Positions 11,601 through 34,957 of a DNA stretch of 36,135 nucleotides are shown piece by piece. This DNA comes from a virus (Duplodnaviria; Caudoviricetes). Position 1 is the stretch's first letter, and the number at the start of each line of letters is the position of its first letter. The stretch covers positions 1 to 36,135 of the IMG/VR virus record IMGVR_UViG_3300037279_000070; one strand, written 5' to 3'. A program made the translations under genes and the position numbers. The notes below the pieces were generated by a model. That model saw only the letters and a list, made by a program, of their open reading frames with translations, had not been told where the DNA came from and ran no database searches.

Positions 11601-14600
11601 TCAGGCAATATATAATTTACAGGATGAATCAAATAATTATAAGGTAGATGAGACTGGAGATACCAAATTCTCTCAATACACTTTACCCGGTGGAGAAAAA
11701 TACAAAGAATTGTTGTTGACGATGCCGGAAAAAAAAGGAGACACTTTCAAATCTTCTCACTTTGACGAACCCAATATACTTGCACACGTACGTTTTGACG
11801 AAAGAACGGTAAACGGTGAAAAGGTATTGTTTATTGAAGAATTTCAAAGCGATTGGGCACAGAAAGGAAAGAAAGAAGGGTTTAAAGTAAAAACTACCGA
11901 ATTGCCAATAGGAACTACTATTGATAAAAATGAATTTGGTTTATTCAATATAAACGTTGGTGGCATAACAAAATATGAAGATTTTAAAAGCGAAAAAGAA
12001 GCAAAAGATTTTGTTTTGAATGCGATTAATAAAGTCAACACTAACGTTCCCGATATGCCATTCAAGAAAACCGACCAATGGGTTAATCTTGCCTTTAGAC
12101 GTATGATGCGTTATGCAGCAGAGAATGGATTTGATAGGATAGCATGGACGAATGGAGAACAACAGGCAGACAGGTATAATTTGAGTAAACAAGTTGATGA
12201 AATACTTTATTCCAAAAACGAAGATGGTACTTATGCCATTTCTGCTATTCAACAGAGGATAGGTAAGATGTTAGGTGAAAGTATTCCGGAGAATAAAATA
12301 GAGGATTATGTAGGGAAAGAGGTTGCAAAAAAAATAATATCTGGAGAAGGTAATGATACTGAAACGCAAGGTAAATACAAAACCATGAAATCACTTTCAG
12401 GCAATGGTTTGAAAGTTGGTGGTGAAGGAATGAAAGGTTTTTATGATCAGATAGTACCAAAGGTAGCTAAAGACTTAGGGAAACCATTTGATGCAAAAGT
12501 AGAAACAATCAATATCCCAGAAACAGGGGAACAACAATCTCTACCTGTGACTGATAAAATGAAAGAATCGGTTAAACAAGGTGTCCCATTGTTTGCCCGC
12601 ACACCAGATGGTACGATTTATGGATTCGTGAAAGATGGAACGATCTATCTTAACCCTGCAAAGATGAATGCAAATACTCCTATTCACGAGTATGGACATT
12701 TATGGTTGATACATATCGAAAAGACCGATCCAGCTTTACATGCAAGGGGAGTAGAGCTAATTAAAGATAGTCCGTATTACACACAAGTAAAGAATGATAG
12801 AAACTATCAAGGCTTAGATGAGACGGGGATAGTCGATGAAGCTTTGGCTCGTGCAATAGGCGATAAAGGAGAACAGATAGTCAATAATTTAGGTTTAAAA
12901 GACAAACTAAAGGCTTGGATTAGTGATTTTTGGAAAGCAATAAGTTCAAAATTTGGAATCAAATTAACACCTGATCAATTACAGGACTTAACTTTGGATC
13001 AGTTTACGGACTATGCAAACGCCAATTTATTAGGTGATGATGTAATATCAGAAAATAAAGTTGAGACAGATAACAAGATGCAGATAGATGACTTGGATAA
13101 TCCAGATGAGACATATACCAAAGATATAGATAAATTAATTGAACAAAGAGCAAAGGAAAGCGAACGACTTGCAAGAATACTTTCATCAGAACCTCAACGA
13201 CCAATCTTAAATAGGGAGATGGGAGAGGATGCTTTGTCTTATGCAAAACGCGTCCAAGATGCAGAAAAAACATTCAATAAAGAACATGCGATTTGGAATA
13301 AAAGTAGAGACGAACTTTCAAAGAATGCAGAGAAATTAGCAAAGAAATTTGGATCCTCATTTCCTCGTCAAGATACTGGTGAGTCAAATGAAGACTTCAG
13401 GAAAAGACTTAAAAAATATCTTGATGAAGTTCCTAAAGAAGGTATAAATCAAGAAGGAGGATTATCTATAGAAAATGGAAAGACTCTTTTAAAATCAATA
13501 AATACTCTTTTCAATAATGGCGACGAAGAGACGAAGGCCGTAATAAGGGAATTTTCCGGAGACTTTAATAGAAGAATGGAGACAGCTACCTTTAATCTAA
13601 AGAAAGCTTTTAGGGCTTTTGCAAAGATGTCAAGAGGTGATATGTTGAAGTTTATCGACAACATGGAGCATGGGAAGAAGCAAGACACCGATATTTTACA
13701 AGTGTACAGTGATCAACTAAGGGCTACCTTGGATAAAGCTCGTGAGGCAGTGAGAGGTTTAGGAATAGGTAAACTTGAAGAATTTATTGAGTATTATTTT
13801 CCTCATAGGTACAAGGGAAAAAAGACTGACTTTTTGAAACATAGAAATTATGAATACTTAAAGGATGCGATTAATGCAGGATTAGAGCCACAAGATTATA
13901 ATCCTGTAGTATCAACCCTTAAACATGTCAGGGATATGTATAGATTTGTCTTTGCCCATAAAGCGATGACAGACTTAGTCAGTACAGGAACGGTTGTGTT
14001 CGTTCGTGCCGGAGAGAGTGCACCAGAATTAAAAGATGGGCACTTTGTAGAACTACCAAGAGCATTAAGTACGATTTACAGCGTGCATAAAGTAGAAAAA
14101 GGAAGGTATTACGCATTGCCGGAAGTTGCGAAGATATTTGAGAGATACCAAAGTAGAGGATGGGAAGATAATAGTCTATATAGACTTGCAAGGGGAATTA
14201 ATAACATAGGAAATCAGTTACAGCTTGGGTTGTCAGCTTTTCACGTTGGATTCACCTCGTTAGATACGATAGTATCAAGAAATGCCTTAGCTTTAGAATA
14301 CTTACTTCATGGCAAGATAGGAAGAGGATTATGGGAGATGTTCCCTTTGAACTCTTTAATTACGCCGGCTACTAACTACTATAGGGGAAAGCAACTTCAA
14401 AATGTATTCATAGGTAAGACTATGGCCGACAATTATAAGATGGTGGTAGCGGCTACAGGGCTTCAAATGGCGAATGGGCGTGCTCACATGGACGCCATAT
14501 ATGGGGATCAGATGTGGAACAAAATGATGGAAAATCTTCACAGCAAAACAGTAGGTGGAGTTTTAACTAGTATTCCGCAAGGACTAATAGCGGTACTTGA

Positions 14601-15891
14601 GGCACCGGGAAAATTTATTATGGAGAATATCGTTCCACGTCAAAAACTTGGTGTTTTTTATGATATGATGATGTATGAGTTAAGGGTGCATCCAAATATG
14701 GACGTGCCACAATTCAGGGAAGCAGCTCAAAGGGCATGGGACAGTGTAGATAATAGATTAGGTCAGTTGACTTATGATAATCTGTTTTGGAATGAATCCG
14801 TAAAAGATGCTTTGATGTTGACTTTTAGATCAGTTGGGTGGAATCTTGGAACTATCCGTGAGATAGGGGGAGCCGTACTGGAATTACTTCATACTGTATC
14901 TCATAGACCAAAAAATGATATAGAAACGCATAAGGCGGCTTATGTTGCCTCTTTGATGTTTACGACAGCCATGATGTCATCTATTTATCAATATTTGGCT
15001 ACTAAAAAAGCACCTTCATCGGCACTTGACTTAGTAGCTCCGCAAAATGGCGGAGTGGATAATTTTGGAAACCCAACACGGTCAATGCTTCCAAGTTATA
15101 TGGGCCAAATATTTTCAGCACACTACTACGGTTTAAATGAGGTAGCTAATAAATTCTCTCCCCTACTTACTGGGATAATTGAAAACATAGAAAACAAAGA
15201 TTTTTATGGAGCAGAGATAAGAAGGTCAGACATGGAGCTTAGAGATATAAAAGGTGTAATTAAATATGCTGCACAACTTGGATGGGATGAGTTGAAATAT
15301 GTTTTAAAAGATGTAATCCCTCTTTCCATAAAGAATTTACAACAACAACAAGTTTCGCCTATGGCTCAAAAGATAGCTGTCATGTTTGGGATTAAGTCGG
15401 CTATTACTCCTTTGAATAGGACAGCGGCAGAAAATGAACTGTTAGCCTTATATGGTGAGATGGCGCCACAAGCACCTAAAACACAAGACAAAATAGATAC
15501 GAACGACTTACTTTATCAATTAAGGGGTCAATATCTTAATTCAGATGTACAGGGGAAAGAGAAGATCAGGGAACAAGCTATCCAAGCATTAAAAGACAAA
15601 ACTATTTCTCCGATAGAATATAAAAGAATCATAGCCCCTATAAATGAAAATCCATTAGGTCAGTTATTAATGTCTTATAAGATTACAGGGGATCAGGCAT
15701 ATGAAAACTTTATCGGTTATCAGACAAAAGAGGAAAGATCAAAAACTTATCAGATAGTGATTAACAAACTAAAGAAAGAGTTCGTAAAATCATCTCTTGA
15801 TAAAAGGAAGAATATAAATATATATTTAGGTAACATCTATAACATATTAAAAGATGAAGGTATCAAAACACAACAACAGGCTGCTAATTGA
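5695..15891 (+). CDS. Large polyvalent (internal virion) protein: ART-like domain, LPD23-like region, two HExxH zincin domains, C-terminal helical region
   Basis: FKNWFGDW..SKVVDENGEPLVVYHG..GFYFT..YLNIRNP (PolyVal ART-like); TGWEKGSDGLWRYE; LIHELQHYIQ..EGF..GEVEARN; SHFDEPNILAHVRF..LFIEEFQSDW; IYLNP..TPIHEYGHLW. Confidence 0.85.
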   Translation: MPIVDVNGQKGFVPDANLDGFLKDYPDANIHYAINGQTWAVPAKNTKKLLQKFPDAAPLTGGIETPKDLAIPHDQVGFQGSLTAPDLNPEQGYHPINKTGTPSVVPMPIPSSISDQPIFNQPQEPALKVAPYQNENLKGAESKALVNTAYNNLNSSISKTGEQAYNASGFNKNTHLGSPMSEDAGSLTNAILGIQAYNKSIDPATFIPQKIDELQPYIQNEALQELQNDPNYLNLKNTGQLTPDLQQKLVSDKLAQKTQQAYDTILQKGYIQPNMPTSWADDIIKGAVNQSMIGMGYNLATNVESGSLLAAKQQALKDYNPNIVESALSMAGGFILDSPFFAVGGEVTSAATDAIANQVLKQSTKGLLENGVLGVNPESLARLLSPAEKGIIKGSEYAGQGLTMANYNQAKSDLGQLLDINEGVKSIGDFKPFDVKKYFEDFGMFSMLGFAGGAVYGAAQKAKEAIGGLAGNLTARAIQVGDVAAQSASFTAVSALENPNTHFNAFKDFESNFLMFATMGAQHLIGGVEGVRKPRPENAAQKKMYDFMDNNLKGNNDILNSINFTQEEQNALSPLSKATDLKSAIIDLSNQSVKDKDLAKKVDDLLTNKDVPFSLKSKLYYAISGDMLSIPTIGTHAVIPDNDMYTVEARDRAGNLIEKKPNLSLEDATNIDRDYDEMKKDQDGFMLERSLGNTDAVTNIMKDVAKKEEIPIDDISKIFAKEPKDRTDKERQITQSYISELLKNVKPSKNNILLSDYDNITNAQRKSIVDNYDKSLHNFDDTFGKDAEQMKGQVDSGNYEDYWMTKGQKDAVNKYVKTKKDYDGFLNHVKNNLDKTIEKLHKSIDLLTNKDTGHVTEVKFNGQNYTVSDGKLAISVDENVVKEIDNKNSSDIIALRDVNGNIISASIKDSNLELQSDTDAKELKQSVVDQARNKAVEDIKSSIDYNKGEQLFYTKDGKTTNVTFDQAHPDDDKAIVFDMEKTPKIINGVPQYERMIVDRSMLSTEKIPPVEEEKSTEGTTEIKELPKDDKGNISWNEMTPEEILRTLRSQMDDENVIGSIDETIDKATKELDKVSKKKITGDVDTRMKNIEEKNSKMSSLQKRIDHFNKVKELTTKTNENATKNGKIEQDSIEKHQNGNGIVQENGETGNVAPENSQESTETGDSNSVQKGGEKINTNIDVPDNTPLEDVPFQIISEEEGNKEKTNEQVEKIDQEKAMGNPTKYDQPFKTNDEKNYDTLVGILHRHFPKNNTATAEEFKAAVDKMLTSPRVLILKEMQSIKDNAVKDGTFMKAPNGNDTKLTETQWLQVRTDNFKNWFGDWLTDPEHASKVVDENGEPLVVYHGSPNKFNVFNLDKIGSQGTTEGQGFYFTPDRSISDGYSERRGEGEGSLFSLYLNIRNPYSNEVKTFTKSNIKKILLELYSHDKEALSNFGDVGYEGFNKILNDAVNLMNEDESDTSIIGGLINGGVASVEDVLKAVKKVTKKDGVITSWKSDEKETPIYITIDPTDIKSTIDNNGEFDANNPDIRMQIIGEQGAKNLDKFDKGTRLESLRAAKAMEGTPIEIKAATGWEKGSDGLWRYETPDLKLNDEIQKAIDNDPKGGFATWEAKYREKHDGKSPIIKDIIGKDDPLLKAFPELGDHWASTYPASQMDGATGYLNSHGNVIMSSDLTKGDSQDVRRVLIHELQHYIQHKEGFSTGTNLDNEVERGGLSKEKMMLLQGAYMAPEKDKKEIIDGLGNLVDMEAISPEEAKDIKTIIEKGDDAIKKELDTPFQRYKRSAGEVEARNASEKRANMTPEEKRHRLIDETSDVAPEDQIHTRDEYLNSESRNVSPTGFYSPTEEALGRIQQEKGTKEQFKQMLLKNGAKQAELDWMGFDQLPDKLTKSDIQKWINENKIDVKDVELDSNNGAITDELNDDAEEELDRLDTIQKRWDSIESALANDYELSEKDQERLDKYIEEFDDIDGVSQAIYNLQDESNNYKVDETGDTKFSQYTLPGGEKYKELLLTMPEKKGDTFKSSHFDEPNILAHVRFDERTVNGEKVLFIEEFQSDWAQKGKKEGFKVKTTELPIGTTIDKNEFGLFNINVGGITKYEDFKSEKEAKDFVLNAINKVNTNVPDMPFKKTDQWVNLAFRRMMRYAAENGFDRIAWTNGEQQADRYNLSKQVDEILYSKNEDGTYAISAIQQRIGKMLGESIPENKIEDYVGKEVAKKIISGEGNDTETQGKYKTMKSLSGNGLKVGGEGMKGFYDQIVPKVAKDLGKPFDAKVETINIPETGEQQSLPVTDKMKESVKQGVPLFARTPDGTIYGFVKDGTIYLNPAKMNANTPIHEYGHLWLIHIEKTDPALHARGVELIKDSPYYTQVKNDRNYQGLDETGIVDEALARAIGDKGEQIVNNLGLKDKLKAWISDFWKAISSKFGIKLTPDQLQDLTLDQFTDYANANLLGDDVISENKVETDNKMQIDDLDNPDETYTKDIDKLIEQRAKESERLARILSSEPQRPILNREMGEDALSYAKRVQDAEKTFNKEHAIWNKSRDELSKNAEKLAKKFGSSFPRQDTGESNEDFRKRLKKYLDEVPKEGINQEGGLSIENGKTLLKSINTLFNNGDEETKAVIREFSGDFNRRMETATFNLKKAFRAFAKMSRGDMLKFIDNMEHGKKQDTDILQVYSDQLRATLDKAREAVRGLGIGKLEEFIEYYFPHRYKGKKTDFLKHRNYEYLKDAINAGLEPQDYNPVVSTLKHVRDMYRFVFAHKAMTDLVSTGTVVFVRAGESAPELKDGHFVELPRALSTIYSVHKVEKGRYYALPEVAKIFERYQSRGWEDNSLYRLARGINNIGNQLQLGLSAFHVGFTSLDTIVSRNALALEYLLHGKIGRGLWEMFPLNSLITPATNYYRGKQLQNVFIGKTMADNYKMVVAATGLQMANGRAHMDAIYGDQMWNKMMENLHSKTVGGVLTSIPQGLIAVLEAPGKFIMENIVPRQKLGVFYDMMMYELRVHPNMDVPQFREAAQRAWDSVDNRLGQLTYDNLFWNESVKDALMLTFRSVGWNLGTIREIGGAVLELLHTVSHRPKNDIETHKAAYVASLMFTTAMMSSIYQYLATKKAPSSALDLVAPQNGGVDNFGNPTRSMLPSYMGQIFSAHYYGLNEVANKFSPLLTGIIENIENKDFYGAEIRRSDMELRDIKGVIKYAAQLGWDELKYVLKDVIPLSIKNLQQQQVSPMAQKIAVMFGIKSAITPLNRTAAENELLALYGEMAPQAPKTQDKIDTNDLLYQLRGQYLNSDVQGKEKIREQAIQALKDKTISPIEYKRIIAPINENPLGQLLMSYKITGDQAYENFIGYQTKEERSKTYQIVINKLKKEFVKSSLDKRKNINIYLGNIYNILKDEGIKTQQQAAN

Positions 15892-17937: not shown

Positions 17938-18351
17938 TTACCTTAGCGGCAATAATTTCAAAATCGGGTTAGTCAACCTCTGATATTTCAGATATTGCTT
18001 TCTCATCTCCATGCGTTCTGAAAAAGTTATAGATTGCTCACCTGTACGATAAAGAGGTGTACGATAAAACTCCCATTTCTTTGATATTTCATACTGACCC
18101 ATGTTTTTAGGAATGATTTTAAGGTGCTTCATCTTTGCAATGTCCAGGTGAGTGACACACATGACATAATCCTCTCTCCCGCCTTTGAGTCTTGGAGGTT
18201 TAGGAATCACGTAGTATCTTTTATTGTTGATCTTACAAAGAAGGTCGGCCTTTTTTATTGCCATGTTAAGTCGGATGTTCACTATTTTTAAAGTGAACAT
18301 CTCCCTTATCCAGTAGGATATTTCTATCCTTAATCGTTGAAATTCGGTCAT
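17938..18351 (-). CDS. Hypothetical basic phage protein
   Basis: 137-aa ORF, ATGA-coupled to the upstream small ORF. Confidence 0.65.
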   Translation of the reverse strand: MTEFQRLRIEISYWIREMFTLKIVNIRLNMAIKKADLLCKINNKRYYVIPKPPRLKGGREDYVMCVTHLDIAKMKHLKIIPKNMGQYEISKKWEFYRTPLYRTGEQSITFSERMEMRKQYLKYQRLTNPILKLLPLR

Positions 18352-19610: not shown

Positions 19611-21680
19611 TTAAAATGAAGCCAATCCAGTGACTTTATTTGTATAAACGGGTTTGTCGACAATGAATTCAGGACGTGGTAGGTATTTCAAGTTAGTGCA
19701 TACGTAAATACCTATGCCGTTACTCATCAAAAGGTCATCATGGAACCCATCGACGGCTCCTAATGATCCATTTTCCTTAACTTCATAGGTATCTAATTCG
19801 TCGCATACCTCTTTGTCTTTCTCTAAATATCCATCTGTGGCCAAAACAATGTCGTAGGTATCCATTACTAAAGGTTTCGTATGGGAATTTATATGTAACC
19901 CCCACTTATGAGGTACACCATCCCTAATAACCTCTGATGAGTTTCTACAATATAAGTTACGATATGCACCTCCAAGTTCATCTAAGATATATTCCAAGTG
20001 ATCACCTTCTGTTTTATTCGTTTCAAATGTATTTGACTCAAAGACAAGTAATGCCTCATCGTAAAACATAGCTATCTGTGCTCCCATCCATGCTAAATTT
20101 GCATGTTCTATATGACCTCTCCAACGCGCTATCTTTTCGAGTCTCCCCCCAATGTCTGTCATTAAATATCTATCGTGAACCGTGATAACTGACCAGTCTG
20201 CCGCACTTGAATTACCTCCAATGTCCACACTGACTACATATCTGTATCTCATCGGCTGTCCATCTGGCAATCTCCATACTAATAGCTTATTATCATTATT
20301 CTTTGAAAATTCTTCTTCGGTAAACTTCAAATCTACCAAAGAGTCCCTTCCTCGTTTATCTTTTCCGTAAATATTGCCTATCTTAACAGGATCGACACAT
20401 CCTTCTCTCAATTTAGCAACATGTATAGCATTGAATTTCCTTCGTCCGGACGTCTGAAAAGCTTCGTTAGCCATAGATGGATTTTCCTGCTTCATAATCC
20501 ACGACTCAGGATATTTTTTGCTCTCTAAGCGATACCAAGCAATCTGTTCTAATGTAGCTCCGTTGTCCCATAGGATATTTTTTTCATATTCATCCAGTGA
20601 GTTTATAAGTTTTGAATGCCCTTCGTTTTCGTTTTTTATCTGGTAGTTTTCGGCTTCCCAATACTTAGCCATCGAAACTTGATAATTATGAGCGAACATC
20701 CATGGGACGAAAATAGGCGTAAAGGAACTCTTTCCACTTATAGCCCGTCCCCATTCTTTAGAAAAGAAATTGATCCCGTTAGCTGTGGACTCATAGACTA
20801 TGATTGTATCTGGGATAGATGGGATACGACTCCCCAAAGTAGCTACTAATTGCTCTGGTGTTTTCCCTTTGGTTTTTTTCCATGATCCAACCTCTGAACA
20901 GTGCAACATGGAGGCAGAAATAGACTTTACTCCATCGGGGCGTTCTGCACTTCCTATCGTGATCCTACATTGACGTTGATTGATTATAGAGGTCTTAGTA
21001 GAACGATTATAAGGAGACAGCTTTAGAAACTCCTCTTTAGTCTCTCCTACCAAGTAAGCTGGAAAAGAGGAAAGGACGGTATTGTACATCCCCTTGATAT
21101 TTATTGAAGCATTTTCGACGTGTGCACAAATCACAGAGTTCCAATTCTTGTGAATAAAGAGTTGTATCCATGCCATGTATAGTTGAAAAAACGTAGAGCC
21201 ACCTCCTCCTTGACTGAACTTTAAGACTATCGCTCTGATAGGTAGTCCTTTTAATCTCTTTGTCTCAAACTCCTTTAGAAATAGTTTTTGGGTATAATTT
21301 AGAAGGAATGGTATTTCTTCGTCGCTATTCTTATCCTTGATCTTAAAATGAAGAAATGCCACATACTCAAAATCTGTCTTGTGGCGTAAAATATCAACCT
21401 CTTTTCTTAAATAATCTATCTCTAATTCTGGATGACACCCTTTCATCTCTAAGTACTTTCTCGCATCTCCCACCTCTGCAAGTTCCTTAAAGATGGGATT
21501 GATAAACATCTCATTGGGAGCCCAAAAATCCACTAAACTGAGTCCTTCTATGTGTACATGAGTTCGGGGAATAGAGAAGCAGTTCTCGCCCGTGATCGGG
21601 TTGAAATTCTCTTCGTCTTTCCGTTTCTTATTACGGATACGGTTTTCTTCAACTATAGTATGGATTCTCCAATCAGTCAT
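19611..21680 (-). CDS. terL: Terminase large subunit
   Basis: LLNYTQ adenine-binding motif, deviant Walker A LKFSQGGGGST, Walker B MLHCSE, coupling motif ESTANG, RNase H-like nuclease VSVDIGG...HDDLLMS. Confidence 0.92.
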   Translation of the reverse strand: MTDWRIHTIVEENRIRNKKRKDEENFNPITGENCFSIPRTHVHIEGLSLVDFWAPNEMFINPIFKELAEVGDARKYLEMKGCHPELEIDYLRKEVDILRHKTDFEYVAFLHFKIKDKNSDEEIPFLLNYTQKLFLKEFETKRLKGLPIRAIVLKFSQGGGGSTFFQLYMAWIQLFIHKNWNSVICAHVENASINIKGMYNTVLSSFPAYLVGETKEEFLKLSPYNRSTKTSIINQRQCRITIGSAERPDGVKSISASMLHCSEVGSWKKTKGKTPEQLVATLGSRIPSIPDTIIVYESTANGINFFSKEWGRAISGKSSFTPIFVPWMFAHNYQVSMAKYWEAENYQIKNENEGHSKLINSLDEYEKNILWDNGATLEQIAWYRLESKKYPESWIMKQENPSMANEAFQTSGRRKFNAIHVAKLREGCVDPVKIGNIYGKDKRGRDSLVDLKFTEEEFSKNNDNKLLVWRLPDGQPMRYRYVVSVDIGGNSSAADWSVITVHDRYLMTDIGGRLEKIARWRGHIEHANLAWMGAQIAMFYDEALLVFESNTFETNKTEGDHLEYILDELGGAYRNLYCRNSSEVIRDGVPHKWGLHINSHTKPLVMDTYDIVLATDGYLEKDKEVCDELDTYEVKENGSLGAVDGFHDDLLMSNGIGIYVCTNLKYLPRPEFIVDKPVYTNKVTGLASF

Positions 21681-21941: not shown

Positions 21942-22430
21942 TTAATCGTTCCATTTATAAATTATCCAAAACACAAAACCCCAGAAGAAACATCCCAAAT
22001 GAAGCATTGGATTAACGGGAATAAAGAACCCACCGTAAAGCCCCAATAGAATAAAGAATAAGAATGGTACTACAAACTTATTGCCAGCATTAAGTAGATA
22101 ACAAAGCATCATTCCTGTAAGTGCATAATCAATCCCAGAAGCCCCAATAGTGGGCAAGACTTTAGCTGAAAGAATGGCGGAACCGGTAGCTATAATCACC
22201 GAAGCTAAAAGTATGGCGTATGTGTTCCCGACCTTACTAAGAAAGTGAAACAACATATAGAAGCTAAAAGCGTCTACGGCCAAATGAAAAATGTTCTCGT
22301 GAAAAAACGAGTAGGTGAAATATGCGTACCAGTTTCCGCCAATCTTAAAACCAACTACATCCAACGGGATTTTGATAAAAAAACAACCTAACAAAATCAA
22401 TATAAAAACGAATGGGAGTATCTTTTTCAT
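21942..22430 (-). CDS. Minimal rhomboid-family intramembrane serine protease
   Basis: FTYSFFHENIFHLAVD (HxxxxHxxxN-like), IGASG catalytic Ser motif, MLHLGCF catalytic His, about six hydrophobic helices. Confidence 0.88.
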   Translation of the reverse strand: MKKILPFVFILILLGCFFIKIPLDVVGFKIGGNWYAYFTYSFFHENIFHLAVDAFSFYMLFHFLSKVGNTYAILLASVIIATGSAILSAKVLPTIGASGIDYALTGMMLCYLLNAGNKFVVPFLFFILLGLYGGFFIPVNPMLHLGCFFWGFVFWIIYKWND

Positions 22431-22873
22431 AGTATCTTACGATTTTGAATATATGACAGCTCTACATAAAAACACGGTGCTTCAGAGTAGATTATCTCAT
22501 CAATGATCTCGTAAATACTTCTTTTGGGAGTCTCCTTTATTTTAATCTCGAAGCGTCTTAATATCTCCTCATACATAGCTCTTTTGTTTTTTGATTTAAG
22601 GGCTATCTCAAATCCCCTATGTGCCATTACGATGATCTTTTTACACTCTATGTCATCAACATAGAATCTTTTAGCCGGACTATTTATCGTCATGGTAATT
22701 AGACCTGACTTGGACATGTATTTAGACGTCTCACCCAATGAAGCAACGGTTTTTTTATACGCCTCCCTTATATCTTTTTTCCTTTCATTGGTTAAGTCAC
22801 GTGTCCTTTCCCAATGAACACTTTTGTTGAGTTTAATTTGGTAGTCAATACTATTCATACTCTTTGTCTTCAT
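22427..22873 (-). CDS. Hypothetical phage protein (SPAKRFYV / EAPCFYV internal repeat)
   Basis: 148-aa ORF, ATGA-coupled to the rhomboid gene. Confidence 0.7.
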   Translation of the reverse strand: MKTKSMNSIDYQIKLNKSVHWERTRDLTNERKKDIREAYKKTVASLGETSKYMSKSGLITMTINSPAKRFYVDDIECKKIIVMAHRGFEIALKSKNKRAMYEEILRRFEIKIKETPKRSIYEIIDEIIYSEAPCFYVELSYIQNRKIL

Positions 22874-23210
22874 TGGTAAAAAATTCGTTTAGCTCTTCTA
22901 TTTCATAGATTAGCTCATTGATAACACCATAAGGATCGTAGTGATGAACTAAAAGATTAGCTACTTTCGTAAATAGCAGTGATCTCTTTCTCTCCTTAGT
23001 GGCTTTTAGCTTTTTGTAAACATGGTAGGTTCTGGCTAATGTCTCCACGATGCTCATTTTCTCATTATGCAAAAAGACTAAGTCGTCGATATTAAAATCT
23101 TCGATTAGTCTCATCCCCCAGCCTACAACGAGGCTGTCCTGTTCATTTATGGTATTCTTTAAGAAGAACGATTTGAAGTGTCGTTCAATCTGATCTTTGG
23201 TTATTATCAT
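22851..23210 (-). CDS. Hypothetical protein
   Basis: 119-aa ORF overlapping the next gene. Confidence 0.6.
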   Translation of the reverse strand: MIITKDQIERHFKSFFLKNTINEQDSLVVGWGMRLIEDFNIDDLVFLHNEKMSIVETLARTYHVYKKLKATKERKRSLLFTKVANLLVHHYDPYGVINELIYEIEELNEFFTNEDKEYE

Positions 23211-23272
23211 GCTTTACATTTTATTTCTCCTTATAAATTTAATATCTAAATCAACTCCCAATATTGCAAAAT

Positions 23273-23506
23273 TTAAGTTTTGAAGCTGTTGTATTTTTCT
23301 CTCATCTCGTTTTGAAAATCGCGTAAACTTTTCATTGACTCGACTCCCATCACATATGTTTGTGTTTGTGAGTCGAAAATTCCCGGAAGTAATAGCATTG
23401 AGTTTTTAATTCTCTCATACTCTGTCATCCTTTGCCAAATCTCTATTGGCAGATGAAGATTATGATATGGCTCTCTTTTCTTTCCAGTCATTCGTATCTC
23501 TGTCAT
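23273..23506 (-). CDS. Hypothetical protein
   Basis: 77-aa ORF with ATGA overlap. Confidence 0.55.
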   Translation of the reverse strand: MTEIRMTGKKREPYHNLHLPIEIWQRMTEYERIKNSMLLLPGIFDSQTQTYVMGVESMKSLRDFQNEMREKYNSFKT

Positions 23507-23733
23507 AAGGCTTCAAATTCTTTTTCGAGTTCGGTTCTGGATATTAATAACCCTTCAAGGGTCTTTTGATAAAAAGGAAGTGCATCTCTTACTTTGATAT
23601 ATGCTGTAACCATTTTTTCAGGTGTCATTTTTTTCATACTTTCTATTTCCTGTGTATATCCAATAATCATGGCATCAATGTCATCTATTTTGTTTTTGAG
23701 TGCCAATCCTTTTTCAAAGAATGTCTTTTCCAT
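23503..23733 (-). CDS. Hypothetical coiled-coil protein
   Basis: 76-aa ORF, first gene of the minus operon. Confidence 0.6.
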   Translation of the reverse strand: MEKTFFEKGLALKNKIDDIDAMIIGYTQEIESMKKMTPEKMVTAYIKVRDALPFYQKTLEGLLISRTELEKEFEAL

Positions 23734-23982
23734 AGTGTTGTATTTATAACCGTAAAATTTACAGCAACAAATATACTAATATTTTGCATAAATCGTGTAT
23801 ATATACATGATATATTTTCGTATTAAAAGCATAAATAATTAAGCACCAAATAATTACTTCGTAGAATCAACTTATATTTATATTTCATTAATACATATTT
23901 GTGAATAAATCAGGACTGATCAACCGCAAAAATCGGGATATATTTCAGAAATTTGCACTTTCAAAACGCATAATTATACGAA
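23734..23982. promoter_or_regulatory. Divergent promoter region between the terminase operon and the head operon
   Basis: AT-rich gap; TATATTTG (TAnnTTTG) on minus at 23768-23775. Confidence 0.5.
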
Positions 23983-24804
23983 ATGGATCCAAATCAAGAC
24001 GTAAATCAAGATCAGGGCGAAGATCAAAGCCAAGATCAACCCCAAGATCAGGGTCAGATGTCCCCACGGGATCGTCTGCGCCAAAAAATGCAAGCCATAA
24101 ACCCACAAAAGGATTATGGAAGTGGTGATGATGACATTAATGACATGCTGGACTTACACGACAAACATGAAGCCGCCGCTAATAAATTAGCTGAAGGAAT
24201 CAAGAAATATCCCGCTATGGCCGGCGTGTTTGGCAGCATGGCCGAAGGAAAGCATCCTTTACACGCTATCGTTTCGGGTTTTGGAAAAGATGTTATGGAC
24301 ATGGATCCAGAATCTGAAGAGTTCGCGAACATAGTAAAGTCACAAGATGAGTACTCACGTAAACAGGAGGACTTAGGAAAGTCAGACAAAGAGTTTCATA
24401 AAAACATGGAAGAATCCGGTAAGGTTTTCCAAGAGTTTGCGGAAAGTAAACAAATGGACGACAAAGCCTTTTCTGATTGGTTCCAAAAGTTCTATGAATA
24501 TTTCGGTGTTCCAATCTTATCCGGCGCTTATAATCTCGAAGTCCTTCAAAAAGCCGACGACGCCATGAATCACGATGACCATGTGGCACAGGCTCAACAA
24601 GACGGAATTCAAGCTGGAGTCGTAGCAACAAAGAATGCTAAGATTATAGCAAAAAACAAAGACATGGGTGGTGATAATATTCCATCATTACATGGTTCAC
24701 CGGCTCCTTCCATTAAACAACCCGAAGCCGAAGGGAAAGGTGATATATGGGATAAATGGGGAAACAGCGGAGTAATGGGAAAGAGTAAAAAAAGAAAGAA
24801 TTAA
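23983..24804 (+). CDS. Putative capsid scaffolding protein
   Basis: Acidic and helical, D/Q low-complexity N-terminus, basic C-terminus, immediately upstream of the capsid gene. Confidence 0.65.
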   Translation: MDPNQDVNQDQGEDQSQDQPQDQGQMSPRDRLRQKMQAINPQKDYGSGDDDINDMLDLHDKHEAAANKLAEGIKKYPAMAGVFGSMAEGKHPLHAIVSGFGKDVMDMDPESEEFANIVKSQDEYSRKQEDLGKSDKEFHKNMEESGKVFQEFAESKQMDDKAFSDWFQKFYEYFGVPILSGAYNLEVLQKADDAMNHDDHVAQAQQDGIQAGVVATKNAKIIAKNKDMGGDNIPSLHGSPAPSIKQPEAEGKGDIWDKWGNSGVMGKSKKRKN

Positions 24805-24820
24805 ACCTAATAATAAATCA

Positions 24821-26590
24821 ATGAAAAAACTATTTAAAGACTATTTTACTAAGGGGAATATTGCTATAATGACCCTTATGATTGTTTGCGCCATCTTTGG
24901 TGTGATGGACGGGAGTGCGCTTGCCGCCACTGCCACTGCCACTGATTTTCAAGGATCGACGATGCCTGGCATTCCTGATGAAGTGCCTAATAACACCACA
25001 GGATTAGATGCTGGCCTTCAATCGCCCGGAAATACCCTTACCGATGAGCTTGTGCGTAATGAGTCAGATCAAATTTTGTTGAGTGCCTATGATAAGGTAA
25101 TCACGCAGTTTCGACCTTATCTGAATCCTCTGGATACTCTTTTGCGTTATGTAGAACAAAGACCATGGGACGGTGATCCATCATTAGAAATCAAATGGGG
25201 GGCTAATGACGTAAAAGCCGTTTCTACTTATCTATCAAGTGCTTATGTACAAAACACAGCTTTGGCTGCCGCTGACATAGTTGTTGCAAATGCTCAACTT
25301 TTTGCCACTTCGCAGACAATCAAAGTTATTGGAGGAGTAAATGAGGTGGATACCTTAACTGTTAGCGGAGCCGCTACTGTTGCCGGACAAGTACTCATTA
25401 CGCTTAACGGTGTAGAGCAAGCCGTAAGTGTATTAGCTACAAGTACCGCTATTAATATCGCTGACTTGATAAGAGCTACCGCATTCACTAACTATACGAC
25501 TGGTGGGCCTATCGGGACTACCTCTGTAACGTTTACCGCTACTCAACCCGGCGTTACCTCCGCTCCTACTTTCGCAGCAAACGGAACCGGCGCGGCTGCT
25601 TCTTTCGCGGTTAAAACTGCCGGAAGCACTGTTATTGGTTATCTTGCTGACGGAGCAACTGCCGACACACGACCTTTGACGCTTTATGTACAAGCAAGAA
25701 ATTACGGGACTAATACATTAACGGTGGTGGCTATTAACGGCCCGAAAACATTGTCTACCGATGTTTCTACTTATGTTCCTTCATTGCCTGCCGGAGTCTC
25801 ATTATATCGTTTAGGCCGTGCTGCTGCTGAACTTGATATTACGACTGATGCTTACAATGCTATTCCTACTTTCGTGGGTAATTACATGCAATCGTTCAAA
25901 TCTCAGGTAACGGTAAGTAACTGGTTTAAGAAATCAAAGAAAAACGTCAAATGGGATAAGGTAGATATTGAAGATGCTGCTAAATTCGAGTACAAACGTG
26001 AGATTGAGGCAAGTTCTATCTATGGCGTCAAAGGAAATACCCGTGACACCGTGAAGAATGCTGACGTCTTAACGTGTAATGGTATCTCGAGTTATATCAC
26101 ACAGGTTTTTGAATATCAGATTCAGAATGTATCTAAAGTTGGTGGATGGGATAAAAATGACCTTATCCTATTCCATGAACAGCTATTTAGTGAGAATGTA
26201 GGTTCGAATAAACGTATCGTATTTGCTGGCAAATCGTTACTGTCAAGTATCTCTATGATTGACTACACTCAATTTAAGGACTTGGAACGTGATACTAAGG
26301 TGATGTTTGGAATAGAGTGGGATACCATTAAGACTATTTTTGGTACTACTTACTGGGTGCACATGCCTTTAATGGATGAGATGGGCGAAGCTACCGAAGG
26401 GTACGCTATTGATCCTCAATACTTGTATAAGTACTCATTTGAGCAACAAAACGTGAAGAATCTTGACCTCGTAACTTCTGGTATTGCAAATGCTGATGCA
26501 AGTGTTACTACTGAAGTAATGTGTCCGGCTTTGGCTTATCCAAAATGCCATATGAAGATTCATCTCAATCCAATAGTACTTAATACTTAA
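24821..26590 (+). CDS. Major capsid protein with N-terminal signal/TM segment and an inserted A/T/G-rich beta domain
   Basis: Follows the scaffold gene and precedes a strong terminator; HK97-like motifs NYMQSFKSQVTVS, FEYKREIEASSIYGVK, TCNGI, KRIVFAGKSLL, IKTIFGT. Confidence 0.82.
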   Translation: MKKLFKDYFTKGNIAIMTLMIVCAIFGVMDGSALAATATATDFQGSTMPGIPDEVPNNTTGLDAGLQSPGNTLTDELVRNESDQILLSAYDKVITQFRPYLNPLDTLLRYVEQRPWDGDPSLEIKWGANDVKAVSTYLSSAYVQNTALAAADIVVANAQLFATSQTIKVIGGVNEVDTLTVSGAATVAGQVLITLNGVEQAVSVLATSTAINIADLIRATAFTNYTTGGPIGTTSVTFTATQPGVTSAPTFAANGTGAAASFAVKTAGSTVIGYLADGATADTRPLTLYVQARNYGTNTLTVVAINGPKTLSTDVSTYVPSLPAGVSLYRLGRAAAELDITTDAYNAIPTFVGNYMQSFKSQVTVSNWFKKSKKNVKWDKVDIEDAAKFEYKREIEASSIYGVKGNTRDTVKNADVLTCNGISSYITQVFEYQIQNVSKVGGWDKNDLILFHEQLFSENVGSNKRIVFAGKSLLSSISMIDYTQFKDLERDTKVMFGIEWDTIKTIFGTTYWVHMPLMDEMGEATEGYAIDPQYLYKYSFEQQNVKNLDLVTSGIANADASVTTEVMCPALAYPKCHMKIHLNPIVLNT

Positions 26591-26634: not shown

Positions 26635-27045
26635 ATGAAAATATACCAAAGTGCGCTTTTGAACTGCTCTATTATGTGTCAACATAAAGGGCAGGATTAT
26701 AGGATAAGTTTCCAACATGGCTCTTTAATGGGAGGTAGGACGTTTGGAGGTGTCTATCTGACTAATGACGTTAATGAACAAAAAGCCATAGAGTCACATA
26801 GGGACTTTTTAGAAGGAAAGATAAAAATACATTTTCAAGACCCCGAACCTATAGAGGAGCCTAAGAAAGAAGAACAGAAACCGGCAGAGATATTCAAAGG
26901 TATAAAAAATGGACAGAGTGCTTTGATAAAACTCAAAGAACTTGGTTACACCGAAGAAGAAACGGGTTATACTCCGGCAGAGATAGCCGCCTTCTCTAAA
27001 TCTAAAGGATTTTACTTTCCAGACTGGCTAACATTTACAAAATGA
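26635..27045 (+). CDS. Hypothetical head-module protein
   Basis: 136-aa ORF after the capsid gene, ATGA-coupled to the next gene. Confidence 0.65.
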   Translation: MKIYQSALLNCSIMCQHKGQDYRISFQHGSLMGGRTFGGVYLTNDVNEQKAIESHRDFLEGKIKIHFQDPEPIEEPKKEEQKPAEIFKGIKNGQSALIKLKELGYTEEETGYTPAEIAAFSKSKGFYFPDWLTFTK

Positions 27046-27740
27046 CCATTTCAGACTTGATAAGGCGTGTAAAAATCAAAATGGATGAACTTACGCCTTT
27101 TGGCGAAGGATTATCTATTACCGATCCCTCTACAGGTGCTTCTATTCCCGTTACATCTGGATTAGTCTTATTGAGACCTGAACTTTACGAGAAACCCATT
27201 GAGACATACATTAAAGAGTCTATCTATGATGGCTATTATGCTTTAGTAGCTATTGCCCCTTATCATATTACGCCGGTTAAATCATTAACCGGAACCGTTG
27301 TGTTGAATGCTGATAGAAGTGGCACTTTTACGTTGCCTTCTGACTTTTATAAGCTAAAGGATTTTAAGTTAGTCGAGTGGGAGAGACCCGTAACGGTTAC
27401 TATAGACGAGAATGACCCTCATTATAAGGATCAATTCAATATTTACACAAGAGGGAATATCTCTAAACCTATATGCGTGCGAAATAGCGACAATCTAACG
27501 ATGAGTCTGTTTTCTATTTCGTATCCTATCATTACGATGACATTTCAGAAAGGTTCTTATGTCCCTGATCTTGTCTTATCAGTTACCGCAGGCGGCCAGA
27601 TAGACCCTAACGGGATGATAACGTTAGATGAGGATTTCCTAAGACCTTTAATTTGGATGATAGCCTCAATAGTGTATGATATTTATGAGGCTACGGATTT
27701 AGCTAAGATAGCTTTAACCCATGTAGCAGAATTACTATGA
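27042..27740 (+). CDS. Putative head-tail adaptor
   Basis: MTISDLIRRVK N-terminal helix, FTLPSDFYKL motif, C-terminal helical pair; adjacent to the portal gene. Confidence 0.6.
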   Translation: MTISDLIRRVKIKMDELTPFGEGLSITDPSTGASIPVTSGLVLLRPELYEKPIETYIKESIYDGYYALVAIAPYHITPVKSLTGTVVLNADRSGTFTLPSDFYKLKDFKLVEWERPVTVTIDENDPHYKDQFNIYTRGNISKPICVRNSDNLTMSLFSISYPIITMTFQKGSYVPDLVLSVTAGGQIDPNGMITLDEDFLRPLIWMIASIVYDIYEATDLAKIALTHVAELL

Positions 27741-29704
27741 AAATAAATAAACTCCTTACCCGTTCGGCTCTTGGGATACCTTCTGATACAGAGATAGACG
27801 TCTTCGACAGCGTCGAGTCAAAGAGTGATTCAGAGATACTTCTTTCATGCAAATACGCATGGGAGAAATTAGAACCGTTTAGGGAGAGAAGAAGACGTAA
27901 CTATAGATACCTATTTGGAAAGCATTGGGATGACATGGTTGAGGACGTGAACGGTAGTTTAATAAAAGAGGAAGAACTTATAAAAAGACGCGGAAGGGTT
28001 CCATTAGTCCATAATCTGATAAGACAGATATTAAAAACCGTTGTAGGTCAGTATCGGTCGAACAAAACACAAGCCATAGTCTCGGTAAGAGATACAGATG
28101 AAGTGAAACTTGGAGAGATGATGAGTATCGCTCTACAGTACGTTAATCAGGTAAATCAGAAAGAACAATTAGATGCAGATGCTCTTTTGGAGATGTGTAC
28201 CTCTGGAGTGTGTTTTCAATCGGCAAAATATGAGCTTTTGCCTATGAGAGGGACTCCGGATGGATTTGTTGAGAACCTTAACACCGCAAGGATGTTCTGG
28301 TCTTCTAATCTGGAAGACCCAAGAGGATGGGACTTAAAGATGATAGGGCAGATTCACGATTTAAGAATATCCGATGTAGTGGCCGCTTTCTCAAAAGGAA
28401 GCAGAAAGAAAGCTATTGAGATAAGAAAGACATACTCGGAAAGTGGAGCCGGCATCTTCCATTATTCACAACATGATAAGTTTGAATTTTTAGTTCCCGC
28501 TAATCCAAAAATATGTAGAGTAATAGAAGTATGGAGAGAGGAAACTAAAGAGATGTTTCAATGTCACGACCTATTAGAAGGAAAATTATATTGGGTTAAC
28601 CCTGAAGATATTAAAAAGATAGACATACAAAATGCAGAAAGGATACTCGAATATCAAAAGATTGGAGTAGGAAAAGAGGATGCGTTACTTATAAATTACA
28701 AATGGGGTATCCATAAATTCTGGTATTATAGATTTCTCACTCCGTGGGGAAATATCCTTGACGAAGGAGAGACTCCTTATTGGCATAATTCACACCCATT
28801 TACATATAGATATTACAATCTGTATGATGGCATGCCTCATCCTTTTGTAGAGGATATGATTGATCAGAATAGAATGATTAACAGGATGCTCACGCAGTGG
28901 GATTATATTCAGTCCACGAGCGCAAAGAATCCGGTATTTTATGACTTACAAGCCTTAAAGGGGACTACGCCAGAACAACTAAAAGAAGACTATCAAACGC
29001 CAGGCGCAATGATAGGATTCGATGTGCCGGCCACAAAGAAACTAAGTGATATGTTCGTGTCCGAGAAAGGGACACCACCTAACGTAGGGACGTTCGACAT
29101 GATTAGCCTTATGTCTCAATTCATGGATACTATCTCTGGTGTTCATGGAGCTATGAGGGGAGAGAAGCCCGCTTCCGGTACTGCGGCTTCTTTATTTGCC
29201 CAACAGACACAACAGTCAGCCGTTAATCTGGTTGATCTATTCGAGTCTTTTCAGCTTTTTAGAGTTGATGGGGATACTAAGATGATGAAAGTCATCCAAC
29301 AATATTACGATAAGAAAAAAATCATACGCGTTGCCGGTGAAAACTATTCAAAAGAAGCAAGCTATTACGATCCAGATAGAGTAAGGGATGCAGAGTTTGA
29401 CCTTATAATCAGTGAAAGCACTTCCACGACAAGCTATAGGGGCATTATGGATAACTTCTTGTTAGAACTGTTTAAGGAGAAAGCCATAGATATAAAGATG
29501 ATGCTTTCAAATGTGACATTCCCATTTGCGGAAAAACTATTACAATCCATAGAGTCAGAAGAACAGCAGCAAGCACAGCAGCAAATAGGACAGGGGCAAA
29601 GTGGGGGAATAGGTGGGGTAAATGGGGGGAATGCTTCACAACAGCCACCCCAACAAGGGCAATTACCCCAATATTCTCCACAGCCATCCCAACAAGGGCA
29701 GTAA
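27737..29704 (+). CDS. Portal protein (P22-like)
   Basis: RYLFGKHW..RRGRVPLVHNLIRQILKTVVG, FVEDMIDQNRMINR, ISGVHGAMRG..ASG..QQ; Q/G/P-rich tail. Confidence 0.88.
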   Translation: MKINKLLTRSALGIPSDTEIDVFDSVESKSDSEILLSCKYAWEKLEPFRERRRRNYRYLFGKHWDDMVEDVNGSLIKEEELIKRRGRVPLVHNLIRQILKTVVGQYRSNKTQAIVSVRDTDEVKLGEMMSIALQYVNQVNQKEQLDADALLEMCTSGVCFQSAKYELLPMRGTPDGFVENLNTARMFWSSNLEDPRGWDLKMIGQIHDLRISDVVAAFSKGSRKKAIEIRKTYSESGAGIFHYSQHDKFEFLVPANPKICRVIEVWREETKEMFQCHDLLEGKLYWVNPEDIKKIDIQNAERILEYQKIGVGKEDALLINYKWGIHKFWYYRFLTPWGNILDEGETPYWHNSHPFTYRYYNLYDGMPHPFVEDMIDQNRMINRMLTQWDYIQSTSAKNPVFYDLQALKGTTPEQLKEDYQTPGAMIGFDVPATKKLSDMFVSEKGTPPNVGTFDMISLMSQFMDTISGVHGAMRGEKPASGTAASLFAQQTQQSAVNLVDLFESFQLFRVDGDTKMMKVIQQYYDKKKIIRVAGENYSKEASYYDPDRVRDAEFDLIISESTSTTSYRGIMDNFLLELFKEKAIDIKMMLSNVTFPFAEKLLQSIESEEQQQAQQQIGQGQSGGIGGVNGGNASQQPPQQGQLPQYSPQPSQQGQ

Positions 29705-32700: not shown

Positions 32701-33206
32701 TTGGAAGTGAAGATGGTTTAATGTGGCGTTTCTTAGGGGGTTCAGAGACTAACGGAGTAGTTGGATTAATACCCGTTGGAGTATGGATAAACTATGTATG
32801 TGAAGTTCTAACGTATAATTGGATAAACTATGTATGTGAAGTTCTAACGTATAATTGGATAAACTATGTATGTGAAGTTCTAACGTATAATTGGATAAAC
32901 TATGTATGTGAACAAGTCTATCAAGCATCTTACATTCTATATATGGGGCAAAGTAACCCTACGGTGACAACTAATGGAACGGATGCTTTGGCGGCTTATT
33001 CGGTTTCGAGGGGTTATTATACGACTACCGTAGGTGGACCGGCTGCAATAGGGGATGTTTTGTACAACGATGCGGGGTTTACAAACCCAGTGAGTAACAA
33101 CTTTGGAATCACTTACTTTTTAGCAGTGACAGTTAACGGGATAGGAACGCCATTCTGGATAGAAATAGCCCCGACCGGAACAATAATAAACAAAGGATCA
33201 TCTTAA
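29787..33206 (+). CDS. Tail hub/nozzle (stabilization)-like protein with inserted motifs and an atypical C-terminus
   Basis: DGGMEEIMNLR..NGSLRP N-terminus, LKVSSVDNPIVFP, SLGQFGQYPLIVYATDGRWAL, SRDVC, LLTRPIK; follows the portal gene. Confidence 0.7.
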   Translation: MEQKDNIIQLGSMNLAASSAIVNDGGMEEIMNLRHKNGSLRPIGTIPNALFESNLAGSFVVGVSYLILSIGTTDFTLIGAASNTIGLTFVATGVGSGTGTAGIPSQYMNGVSNPYIHSNNDYEHWLGVVNGNITWFASNINGVITMLAAPIVLLACTNPKISSIKNIVSVAWVDTEVHRMFLFWDTPDGSTSPSYQVLDPSFLNPAFNFYLYALIEDIAEYNGTEYPYQVAISSPVITTGVYTPAGTSQPLSYDDNNLVWEAIQGAINKGVYQLNQTGKISGFVLIRYAIQLFDGTYIKHSPVMLVNTQNNQMQNSLRTNGYFPYTAPGMIYTASNDGGNYFTIFSLTTGYDLMMVNQSTIPSNWEDLILSVDIFMSSPIQVEDYLNETGVIIQTPPTQTGYSPTFQNPIVYTDKQLHDKVINNASFFLIKSIPIKDLIGITPTIEPTPQKIDLTEILPILETQQVMVDDNSSYINLYGNAVYSYNQEEHLANIISDYFKGYPLMYYQLLVNSYFRTIPINAGSFLNGNTYTVTTTGTTDFTLIGGVNTVGTTFTAIGAGAGTGTATPVNQVTELASRSAIAALTIAVYIKNENIVQTIVQSLTPDYGSTIYDVLSIFFSGLFTYPDSRAFQATIILQIGPFYYSLTDGVHDYLPLEPHTYLNLACYVNPGLKPIQAIPISAPTIPTLSNLIEYRLNVLKVSSVDNPIVFPDSSTYQIGGGTLVGLRSNGNPISLGQFGQYPLIVYATDGRWALEQGSGDVVYASIRPLSRDVCVDPASITSIDQAIIFVSASGLMIDTGQNVQDIAAPLNGTPLAIVSGLDQLDILKQAMSNDQLVQLTNSISQLNFMDYLKGSLIAFIYREDRELIISNPLYAYSYIFNFDTKTYYKTDYQVKYFVNDYPNTYALLKDVTGITQNFYLYSLSGELRSGNRQTMLLTRPIKVYGEQFKESTRAVLRSMITPIGKSVGFYVFGSEDGLMWRFLGGSETNGVVGLIPVGVWINYVCEVLTYNWINYVCEVLTYNWINYVCEVLTYNWINYVCEQVYQASYILYMGQSNPTVTTNGTDALAAYSVSRGYYTTTVGGPAAIGDVLYNDAGFTNPVSNNFGITYFLAVTVNGIGTPFWIEIAPTGTIINKGSS
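32784..32912 (+). repeat. Perfect 36-bp coding tandem repeat x3.6 (WINYVCEVLTYN)
   Basis: TGGATAAACTATGTATGTGAAGTTCTAACGTATAAT at 32784, 32820, 32856 and partial at 32892. Confidence 0.95.
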
Positions 33207-34586: not shown

Positions 34587-34957
34587 GTGTAGTTGCCGAA
34601 ATAAAACCCGTAACGATCACTGTAGCATATACCGTGAAACCCATTACTATCACCGTTCAGGGAGGAAATAACGGAGGTGGCGGTGGTGGTGGGTATTCCA
34701 ATATCTTTTACAGGGATTTATCTATTTCATCTACGACTATAGCGATACCCGCCGGCACTTGGATAGACAAAATTACTTTCAGGGTAAAAGGAATCTCTAC
34801 GGTGAATATCTCGGATACTAAAAATGGTAATAAATTTGGTTCTATGACAAATGGTTCTCCTATTGACTGGGGGACAGATTATCAAATAGCAGACACATTA
34901 ATAATTAACGTCGTAGGCGATCCCATCGACATAGAAATAACAAAATATTCAATATGA
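34583..34957 (+). CDS. Hypothetical tail-module protein with poly-Gly linker
   Basis: VKPITITV repeat, GGNNGGGGGGG linker, beta-rich C-terminal domain. Confidence 0.65.
   Translation: MSVVAEIKPVTITVAYTVKPITITVQGGNNGGGGGGGYSNIFYRDLSISSTTIAIPAGTWIDKITFRVKGISTVNISDTKNGNKFGSMTNGSPIDWGTDYQIADTLIINVVGDPIDIEITKYSI

Follow-up and report, generated by a model that had tools for sequence, protein, structure and literature searches.

Does a tailed phage that carries a rhomboid protease gene beside its terminase use that enzyme on its own capsid protein? The question is raised by IMG/VR record IMGVR_UViG_3300037279_000070, a virus contig of 36,135 bases that was analysed in full (here called the window) and whose sequence is present in peat metagenomes. 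A preliminary description of the window had proposed that its capsid subunits are tethered to the inner membrane and matured by the phage rhomboid. Three features are central to this proposal, listed with lengths in amino acids (aa).

21942..22430, minus strand: minimal six-transmembrane (TM) rhomboid protease of the S54 fold, with Ser98/His144; His44 and His49 of TM2 kept, Asn53 replaced by Asp.
24821..26590, plus strand: major capsid protein, HK97 fold, SU10_MCP family, 589 aa.
24821..24928, plus strand: capsid leader, residues 1-36, with a basic n-region, a hydrophobic helix at about residues 13-29 and a Gly/Ser turn.

Among related phages, the dependence between the two traits is one-way: the rhomboid implies the leader, and the leader does not imply the rhomboid. 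The rhomboid fold, the catalytic dyad, the leader and this one-way co-occurrence are shown and lend the proposal partial support, but the pairing is not obligate. In our estimate, the probability is roughly 0.45 that the phage rhomboid cuts the capsid leader and frees a membrane-tethered capsid protein, with host enzymes able to substitute; an action of the rhomboid on the leader, of whatever kind, is likely. Membrane tethering, cleavage, the cut site and the enzyme are all matters that we infer.

The rhomboid gene is as first described, a 162-aa open reading frame (ORF) on the same strand as the terminase large subunit gene (terL), with a GASG motif followed by a later His. It matches Pfam PF01694 with an E-value of 1.5e-7, above the cut-off, and its AlphaFold2 model (predicted local distance difference test score, pLDDT, 84) consists of six long helices and an L1 helix. 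The model aligns with Haemophilus influenzae GlpG (3odj) over 137 residues (Z 15.5, root-mean-square deviation 2.3), and Foldseek paired it with Escherichia coli GlpG at a TM-score of 0.72 but with an E-value of only 7e-3; model and structural alignments together display the six-TM core of S54 rhomboid proteases. The GxSG Ser lies at the start of TM4 and the His in TM6. Moreover, His44, His49, Gly96, Ser98 and His144 are invariant in all 29 phage-type rhomboid homologues, and the unvarying Ser/His dyad argues for catalysis. Lys and Arg are concentrated in the predicted cytoplasmic segments of these homologues (0.17-0.32 per residue, against 0.007-0.05 in predicted outside segments), as in GlpG; by the positive-inside rule, the enzyme is therefore predicted to have its N-terminus inside (N-in) and its active site towards the periplasm. 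As a detector, PF01694 was rejected as too insensitive after it missed the rhomboid of one locus (L119), and family-specific profiles were therefore used to find phage-type rhomboids.

The divergently transcribed capsid gene also begins as reported, with a basic n-region, a hydrophobic helix and small residues. Its product matches SU10_MCP (PF17236; E 3e-22), and its HK97-fold matches in Foldseek include the capsids of phage VP1 and phicrAss001, with E-values of 2e-20 for 9in6 and 4e-13 for phicrAss001 7qof. Over 17 residues, the hydropathy of the leader peaks at 2.36, a value that 41 of 5000 shuffles attain within the N-terminal 60 residues, and a peak of at least 1.6 is found in that region in 123 of 151 capsid homologues, a set that includes fragments. 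Gly27 and Gly31 of the turn, conserved to at least 90% in 25 leaders, provide helix-destabilising residues near the putative cut site. The turn is followed by a conserved stretch, (V)-x-M-A|(D/N/A)-A, which leads into a polar linker of low model confidence.

24899..25045, plus strand: low-confidence Gly/Ala/Thr-rich linker, residues 27-75, between the leader and the capsid fold.

A cut near MDGS/AL, as initially suggested, is not what the family alignment favours: it points to GSALA|A, aligned with GVMMA|DA, as the conserved site, and the putative cut would fall after Ala35 or Ala36. Leaderless capsids of other phages begin at about the point where the leader would end. Two further candidates were rejected. 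One was a two-helix hairpin leader, for which the second hydrophobic segment is absent. The other was an internal start at the conserved Met-Ala, yielding a leaderless form: the fraction of A upstream of this Met is 0.13 (17 sites), compared with 0.55 ahead of the first Met of leader-bearing capsids and 0.49 for leaderless ones, and the Met-Ala is missing in 6 of 23, which also counts against such a start.

For the survey of relatives, two neighbouring genes were required in addition to the capsid gene.

19611..21680, minus strand: terminase large subunit, terL.
22427..22873, minus strand: 'up', a conserved gene of 148 aa (phrog_27246) between the rhomboid and the head genes.

The rhomboid gene overlaps the upstream 'up' by 4 nucleotides (nt) and ends 261 nt ahead of terL, with two tiny ORFs inside the gap. 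'up' is present with or without the rhomboid and served as a phylogenetic marker. Of 417 sequences searched, 175 carried a complete capsid gene together with terL and 'up' inside 7 kb; the others were left out because they were short or truncated or lacked a neighbour. These 175 loci comprised 138 with both traits, 28 with neither, 9 with the leader only and none with the rhomboid only, counts inflated by near-identical matches to the queries; hence the loci were reduced at 90% terL identity to 42 representatives. Among these non-redundant intact loci, 23 have both traits, 16 neither, three the leader only and none the rhomboid only. The expected co-occurrence across relatives thus stood in one direction, with no rhomboid lacking a leader, and failed in the other, with leaders lacking a rhomboid in the three representatives, in a decayed prophage and in most domesticated cassettes (see below). 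Since the leader persists without a phage rhomboid, the rhomboid is not obligatory for a leader-bearing capsid. Both traits are also present in loci outside the count (L121, L329 and G099, in which L332 goes with L341). The leaderless capsids found first were kept out of the count because they are mostly host-domesticated cassettes without a nearby terL.

Rhomboid, 'up', scaffold and capsid genes are neighbours, and linkage of the whole block was therefore tested.

23983..24804, plus strand: probable scaffolding protein (phrog_22323), a role suggested by position and sequence character.

A FastTree tree of terL requires at least 8 changes in the leader and 9 in the rhomboid. A single clade for the phages that lack both traits (double losses) is rejected by both genes that flank the rhomboid: in approximately unbiased (AU) tests on the trees of terL and 'up', p was 2.7e-80 with 23 selected rows and 1.1e-5 with 33 rows, none of the 33 being discordant. 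The double-loss group was defined by traits, but after the FastTree trees had been seen. With double losses dispersed across the trees of the two flanking genes, plain linkage appears unlikely. The leaderless capsids form one divergent clade plus L122, and the capsid gene therefore appears to be mobile between backbones. These results are most simply read as the spread of a leaderless capsid gene from backbone to backbone, each time with deletion of the rhomboid.

The divergent leaderless subfamily (L355, L357, L360, L376, L380, L385, L400, L417 and kin) has capsids of about 505 aa, and the terL, portal and 'up' genes of these phages interleave with those of leader-bearing ones, an apparent case of repeated displacement of the capsid gene. 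In L122, a leaderless and rhomboid-less phage, an unrelated gene of 151 aa fills the rhomboid slot between 'up' and terL.

The capsid gene is also found in 27 of 401 sampled Bacteroidales genomes, and a phylum-wide search (401 genomes) gave one weak new match only. Most chromosomal copies are head cassettes amid housekeeping genes. The genomes that carry them have an intact terL elsewhere (27 of 28 tested), a portal gene (5 of 5) and host rhomboids (5 of 5 tested). The genome-collection loci contain 105 complete capsid genes, of which 45 are leaderless and 56 encode a leader but lie near neither terL nor a rhomboid. In the order sample, three of the genomes with 18 leader-bearing cassettes keep a phage-type rhomboid with its dyad, unlinked and next to 'up', while none of four leaderless cassettes is accompanied by one. 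The retention of an intact, unlinked phage-type rhomboid in three genomes with dispersed head genes supports an action of the rhomboid on the leader-bearing capsid.

The cassettes themselves deserve mention. They consist of scaffold, capsid and adaptor genes (L311-L330 and L425-L444, e.g., in G312, G325, G367, G112 and G070; also L126, L158, L172, L175 and L271) and often adjoin what we take, from N-termini, to be a fumarate-hydratase-like or aminopeptidase-like gene. The terL, portal and ejection-protein-like genes lie at separate sites, and four of five genomes of one family carry the cassette. Such a dispersed, apparently domesticated phage copy is a candidate gene-transfer-agent-like system; it is not described in the part of PMC12946183 that was available. 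In two genomes, G070 (L339:5857-6927) and G237 (L342:1038-2159), a phage-type rhomboid with intact Ser/His is fused to a lipoprotein- or spanin-like segment, and both fused genes adjoin 'up' among housekeeping genes.

How might a periplasm-facing protease reach a cytoplasmic capsid? A signal peptide enters the membrane in a looped form, in which the first part of the mature chain returns to the cytoplasm, and the hepatitis B precore protein is cleaved and then slides back. By analogy, the leader would insert into the inner membrane in a signal-peptide-like loop, and the folded domain of the capsid protein would remain on the cytoplasmic side together with scaffold and portal. The conserved Gly/Ser turn that follows the helix would allow the (V/S)-x-(M/L)-A|(D/N/A)-A site to turn round and enter the active site of the rhomboid, and after the cut the polar, disordered linker would slide back, so that the subunit or procapsid could leave the membrane. 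In phages that lost the rhomboid gene but retained the leader, host rhomboids or signal peptidase would take over; in those that lost the leader, the rhomboid and a third gene, 'down' (described below), would be discarded. Complex prediction for the rhomboid with capsid residues 1-50 (25-row alignments) gave a score of 0.04.

This loop-insertion geometry would serve signal peptidase I as well as a rhomboid, and the main rival, which we consider somewhat unlikely, builds on it: the host signal peptidase I cuts at A-x-A, and the rhomboid clears leftover leader peptides or stalled precursors from the inner membrane. The one-way dependence is explained equally well in this way, and the tripartite n/h/c leader, its N-in bias and its A-x-A options (ALA|A here, MA-D-A|S in relatives) all fit. 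At the called site, rhomboid-less lineages mostly have a small P3 (Ala in 14 and Ser in 6 of 38); in rhomboid-bearing phages, however, P3 is Met, Leu or Phe in 16 of 24, mostly from one clade, and such residues are atypical for signal peptidase. A stub left by signal peptidase would, moreover, still be N-in. Other Bacteroidetes phage capsids have signal-like leaders with no rhomboid mentioned in the main text of the report, as far as it was available (PMC10367356). Bacteroidetes signal-peptidase-I substrates, by the accessible portion of another report, show an average Q-value of 71%, a tendency (PMC5837995). Gln after a small residue at +1 is nearly absent here, occurring in at most 12 of 123, 2 of 26 and 1 of 40 leaders; this speaks weakly against an ordinary exported substrate, although a phage protein is not bound to follow the rule.

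A further alternative is that the rhomboid acts on some other protein, in lysis, at the host membrane or in a step involving the following gene, and that it is connected to the leader through a pathway or history common to both.

17938..18351, minus strand: 'down', a small basic protein (phrog_22658) downstream of terL that co-segregates with the rhomboid.

When all ORFs of the 42 representatives were clustered, with loci reaching about 10 kb to each side, only the 'down' family matched the rhomboid pattern, though it lies beyond terL from the rhomboid. It is present in 21 of the 23 rhomboid-bearing representatives (of the other two, one locus is truncated and one lacks the gene), in none of the 16 double-loss representatives (14 of which have at least 3 kb of room) and in none of the three with the leader only. 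This distribution favours another target, as do the fusion of the rhomboid to a lipoprotein-like segment in two domesticated genomes and the small number of supported contrasts given below. On the other side, no TM segment is present in 'down', none of the remaining membrane gene families in the loci analysed follows the rhomboid, and a locus with the rhomboid only was never seen; we regard this alternative as unlikely. 'down' belongs to no named family, and the ESM Atlas returned hypothetical proteins only. Possibly it works with the rhomboid in the same step.

It is quite improbable that the leader stays on, anchoring assembly or remaining in the particle, while the rhomboid thins the membrane or extracts the leader in a Derlin-like manner: the fold relatives include Der1 and iRhoms and the topology is unusual for a substrate, but the invariant dyad and the starting point of leaderless capsids speak against it.

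Cleavage of the leader by the phage rhomboid has its own difficulties, and the following observations weigh against it. The n-region is net positive in 92% of 123 leaders and the c-side zero or negative in 98%, so the leader is predicted to be N-in/C-out, the reverse of type I/III rhomboid substrates. This is a real difficulty, because the shell must be cytoplasmic and scaffold, portal and terminase have no leader-like segment. The capsid protein also lacks a second TM segment and, hence, a true hairpin. According to the accessible part of one report, classical rhomboid substrates are N-out with a small P1 and hydrophobic P4 and P2', and a type II protein may loop its motif back into the rhomboid site (PMC2941825). 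At the called site, for which Ala at P1 was built into the call, P4 is Val, Ile, Tyr, Met or Phe in 21 of 24 sequences and Ser in the window, while P2' is mostly Ala (17 of 24); the rhomboid motif is thus matched only loosely, and the n/h/c plan of the leader includes a signal-peptidase A-x-A option. As for the enzyme, the TM2 motif HxxxxHxxxN of rhomboids forms the oxyanion-hole region. Both His are kept in the window copy, but Asp53 stands where 28 of 29 homologues have Asn, and Asp101 lies in TM4; the closest relative, P0153, has Asn and Ile at these two positions, and the window rhomboid may be less active. DNA contigs from four runs, two of them possibly the source of the window DNA, show no difference over the two Asp codons.

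The distribution of the traits adds further objections. The three leader-only representatives (L112, L115 and L348) form one clade; their records, searched whole, are 44-76% complete, but 'up' abuts terL in them. Outside the count, the decayed prophage L333 (in G065) has the leader and 'down' without a rhomboid; its terL, scaffold, 'up' and capsid genes contain TGA codons in frame. Phage-type rhomboids were not found for 15 of the 18 leader-bearing cassettes, many assemblies being incomplete. Well-supported independent contrasts on the terL tree were concordant in four of four cases, too few for more than p 0.125 in a sign test, and the scaffold tree does not reject a single double-loss clade (AU p 0.39). 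A single loss, with later recombination within terL and 'up', could give the same appearance as repeated losses, though even in that case the 33 rows contain no discordant recombinant. Finally, the distribution of 'down' follows that of the rhomboid more closely than the distribution of the leader does, so that 'down' could be the real partner.

With cleavage of the leader by the rhomboid still preferred, a broader proposal may be put forward, tentatively and with more doubt than confidence: a large family of Bacteroidales podovirus-type phages would build HK97-fold heads on the inner membrane by way of a TM-anchored capsid precursor, and a three-gene module (leader-bearing capsid, rhomboid and 'down') would free them by intramembrane proteolysis of a natural rhomboid substrate in the reverse, N-in topology, the exit from this system being a swap to a leaderless capsid and the dropping of the other two genes.

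The remaining genes place the phage. By its P22-like portal, SU10-family capsid, T7-gp14-like gene and 3398-aa protein with polyvalent domains, the window phage is of podovirus type. Its closest cultured relatives are the Bacteroides phages BS-TP4, BKO1-TP3 and BF1-TP2, from which we infer a Bacteroidales host. Further features of the head region are as follows.

25334..25633, plus strand: beta-rich insertion of about 100 aa in the capsid protein.
26635..27740, plus strand: two conserved head-module genes, one of 136 aa and one adaptor-like of 232 aa (phrog_22135).
27737..29704, plus strand: P22-like portal protein.

The insertion has no Pfam match; it is common to P0002 and absent from P0003 and most homologues. 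The earlier statement that no prohead protease is recognisable was borne out among the ORFs scanned (27 in one scan and 20 in another) of this 36 kb record, which may be incomplete. Podovirus types with a scaffold and a P22-like portal need no prohead protease, and its absence is therefore a weak argument. RNA-library contigs from three studies cover the capsid gene, with the leader spanned in two of four runs, and in one run reach part of the rhomboid gene; such contigs prove neither transcription level nor strand. Promoter-like sites were not above chance (18 versus 25.9).

Several side observations concern the window itself. The ATPase motif of its terL is KFSQGGGGST, compared with KARQWGGST in the alignment consensus; together with the two Asp changes in the rhomboid, the lineage thus has several deviant residues in catalytic regions. 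The 3398-aa virion-type protein (5695-15891) contains ART-PolyVal, LPD23 and a weak DUF6782 metallopeptidase match. Near the end of a 1139-aa tail-type protein, a 36-bp (12-aa) unit is repeated in 3.6 exact copies (32784-32912). An open-ended ORF at 34954-36135, for which Pfam gives sub-threshold stretches only, has a signal-peptide-like start and 4.6 near-identical 210-bp (70-aa) repeats that run off the contig end; this repeat may be the reason why the assembly ends there.

How does the proposed system compare with known ones? To our knowledge, capsid proteins of tailed phages are taken to be soluble and, where processed, to be cut by soluble prohead proteases. The prohead proteases HK97 gp4 and T4 gp21 and the leader peptidase acting on M13 procoat likewise remove an N-terminal part of a coat precursor, and T4 proheads form at the inner membrane. 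However, the HK97 and T4 proteases are soluble and work inside the shell, and in M13 a host enzyme acts on a membrane-spanning filamentous coat; we know of none among these systems in which an intramembrane protease encoded by the phage acts on a protein of HK97 fold. With GlpG and AarA (PF01694; PDB 2ic8 and 3odj; motif in PMC2941825, as available), the phage family shares the six-helix core, the GxSG Ser of TM4, the His of TM6 and a predicted periplasm-facing site. It differs in its size of 150-175 aa without a soluble domain, in its place beside terL, in the Asp that replaces the TM2 Asn in the window and in its proposed substrate, a predicted N-in leader instead of a type I/III protein.

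The best analogy for how the pairing may work is rhombosortase with GlyGly-CTERM (TIGR03902), likewise a rhomboid subfamily paired by phylogenetic profiling with a class of TM-anchored targets, as described in the accessible part of PMC3237569. There, the anchor is C-terminal and on exported proteins, whereas here it is N-terminal and on the capsid protein; the window rhomboid scores 27.6 bits against TIGR03902, for which the cut-off is 84, and thus falls outside the rhombosortases. The Nixviridae phages of P. gingivalis are also Bacteroidetes phages whose capsids have predicted signal peptides, but they are siphoviruses, and the available main text ascribes the leaders to prohead proteases (PMC10367356). 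The Stenotrophomonas phages DLP3 and DLP5 encode a rhomboid too; in the part of the report at hand, it is an accessory gene near deacetylase and WcaG/WecE genes, outside the packaging module, and no target is proposed (PMC7326821). The LoVEphage paper mentions neither rhomboid nor protease. No report linking a phage rhomboid to a capsid, or describing such trimming in tailed-phage assembly, was found in the literature covered, most subscription papers lying outside it.

The cultured relatives BS-TP4 (PQ571277), BKO1-TP3 (PQ571269) and BF1-TP2 (PQ571263) have the same terL-rhomboid-'up' / scaffold-capsid layout at about 30% capsid identity. The BS-TP4 and BF1-TP2 records were inspected, and both capsids carry the leader. 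In the records of these phages, the capsid is labelled DUF2951 or DUF5309 and terL 'tail spike'; the rhomboid is already labelled in two of them, and the functional link is not annotated. The present analysis contributes the one-way pattern, the tree tests of flanking genes, the third gene and the domesticated exceptions. If the proposal is true, head assembly would gain a membrane step in Bacteroidales phages that abound in the gut and the environment, and bacterial rhomboid biology would gain a rare natural and abundant substrate, possibly in an unusual orientation, together with a minimal enzyme of 150-170 aa. The three cultured relatives make the idea directly testable, with leaderless phages as natural controls.

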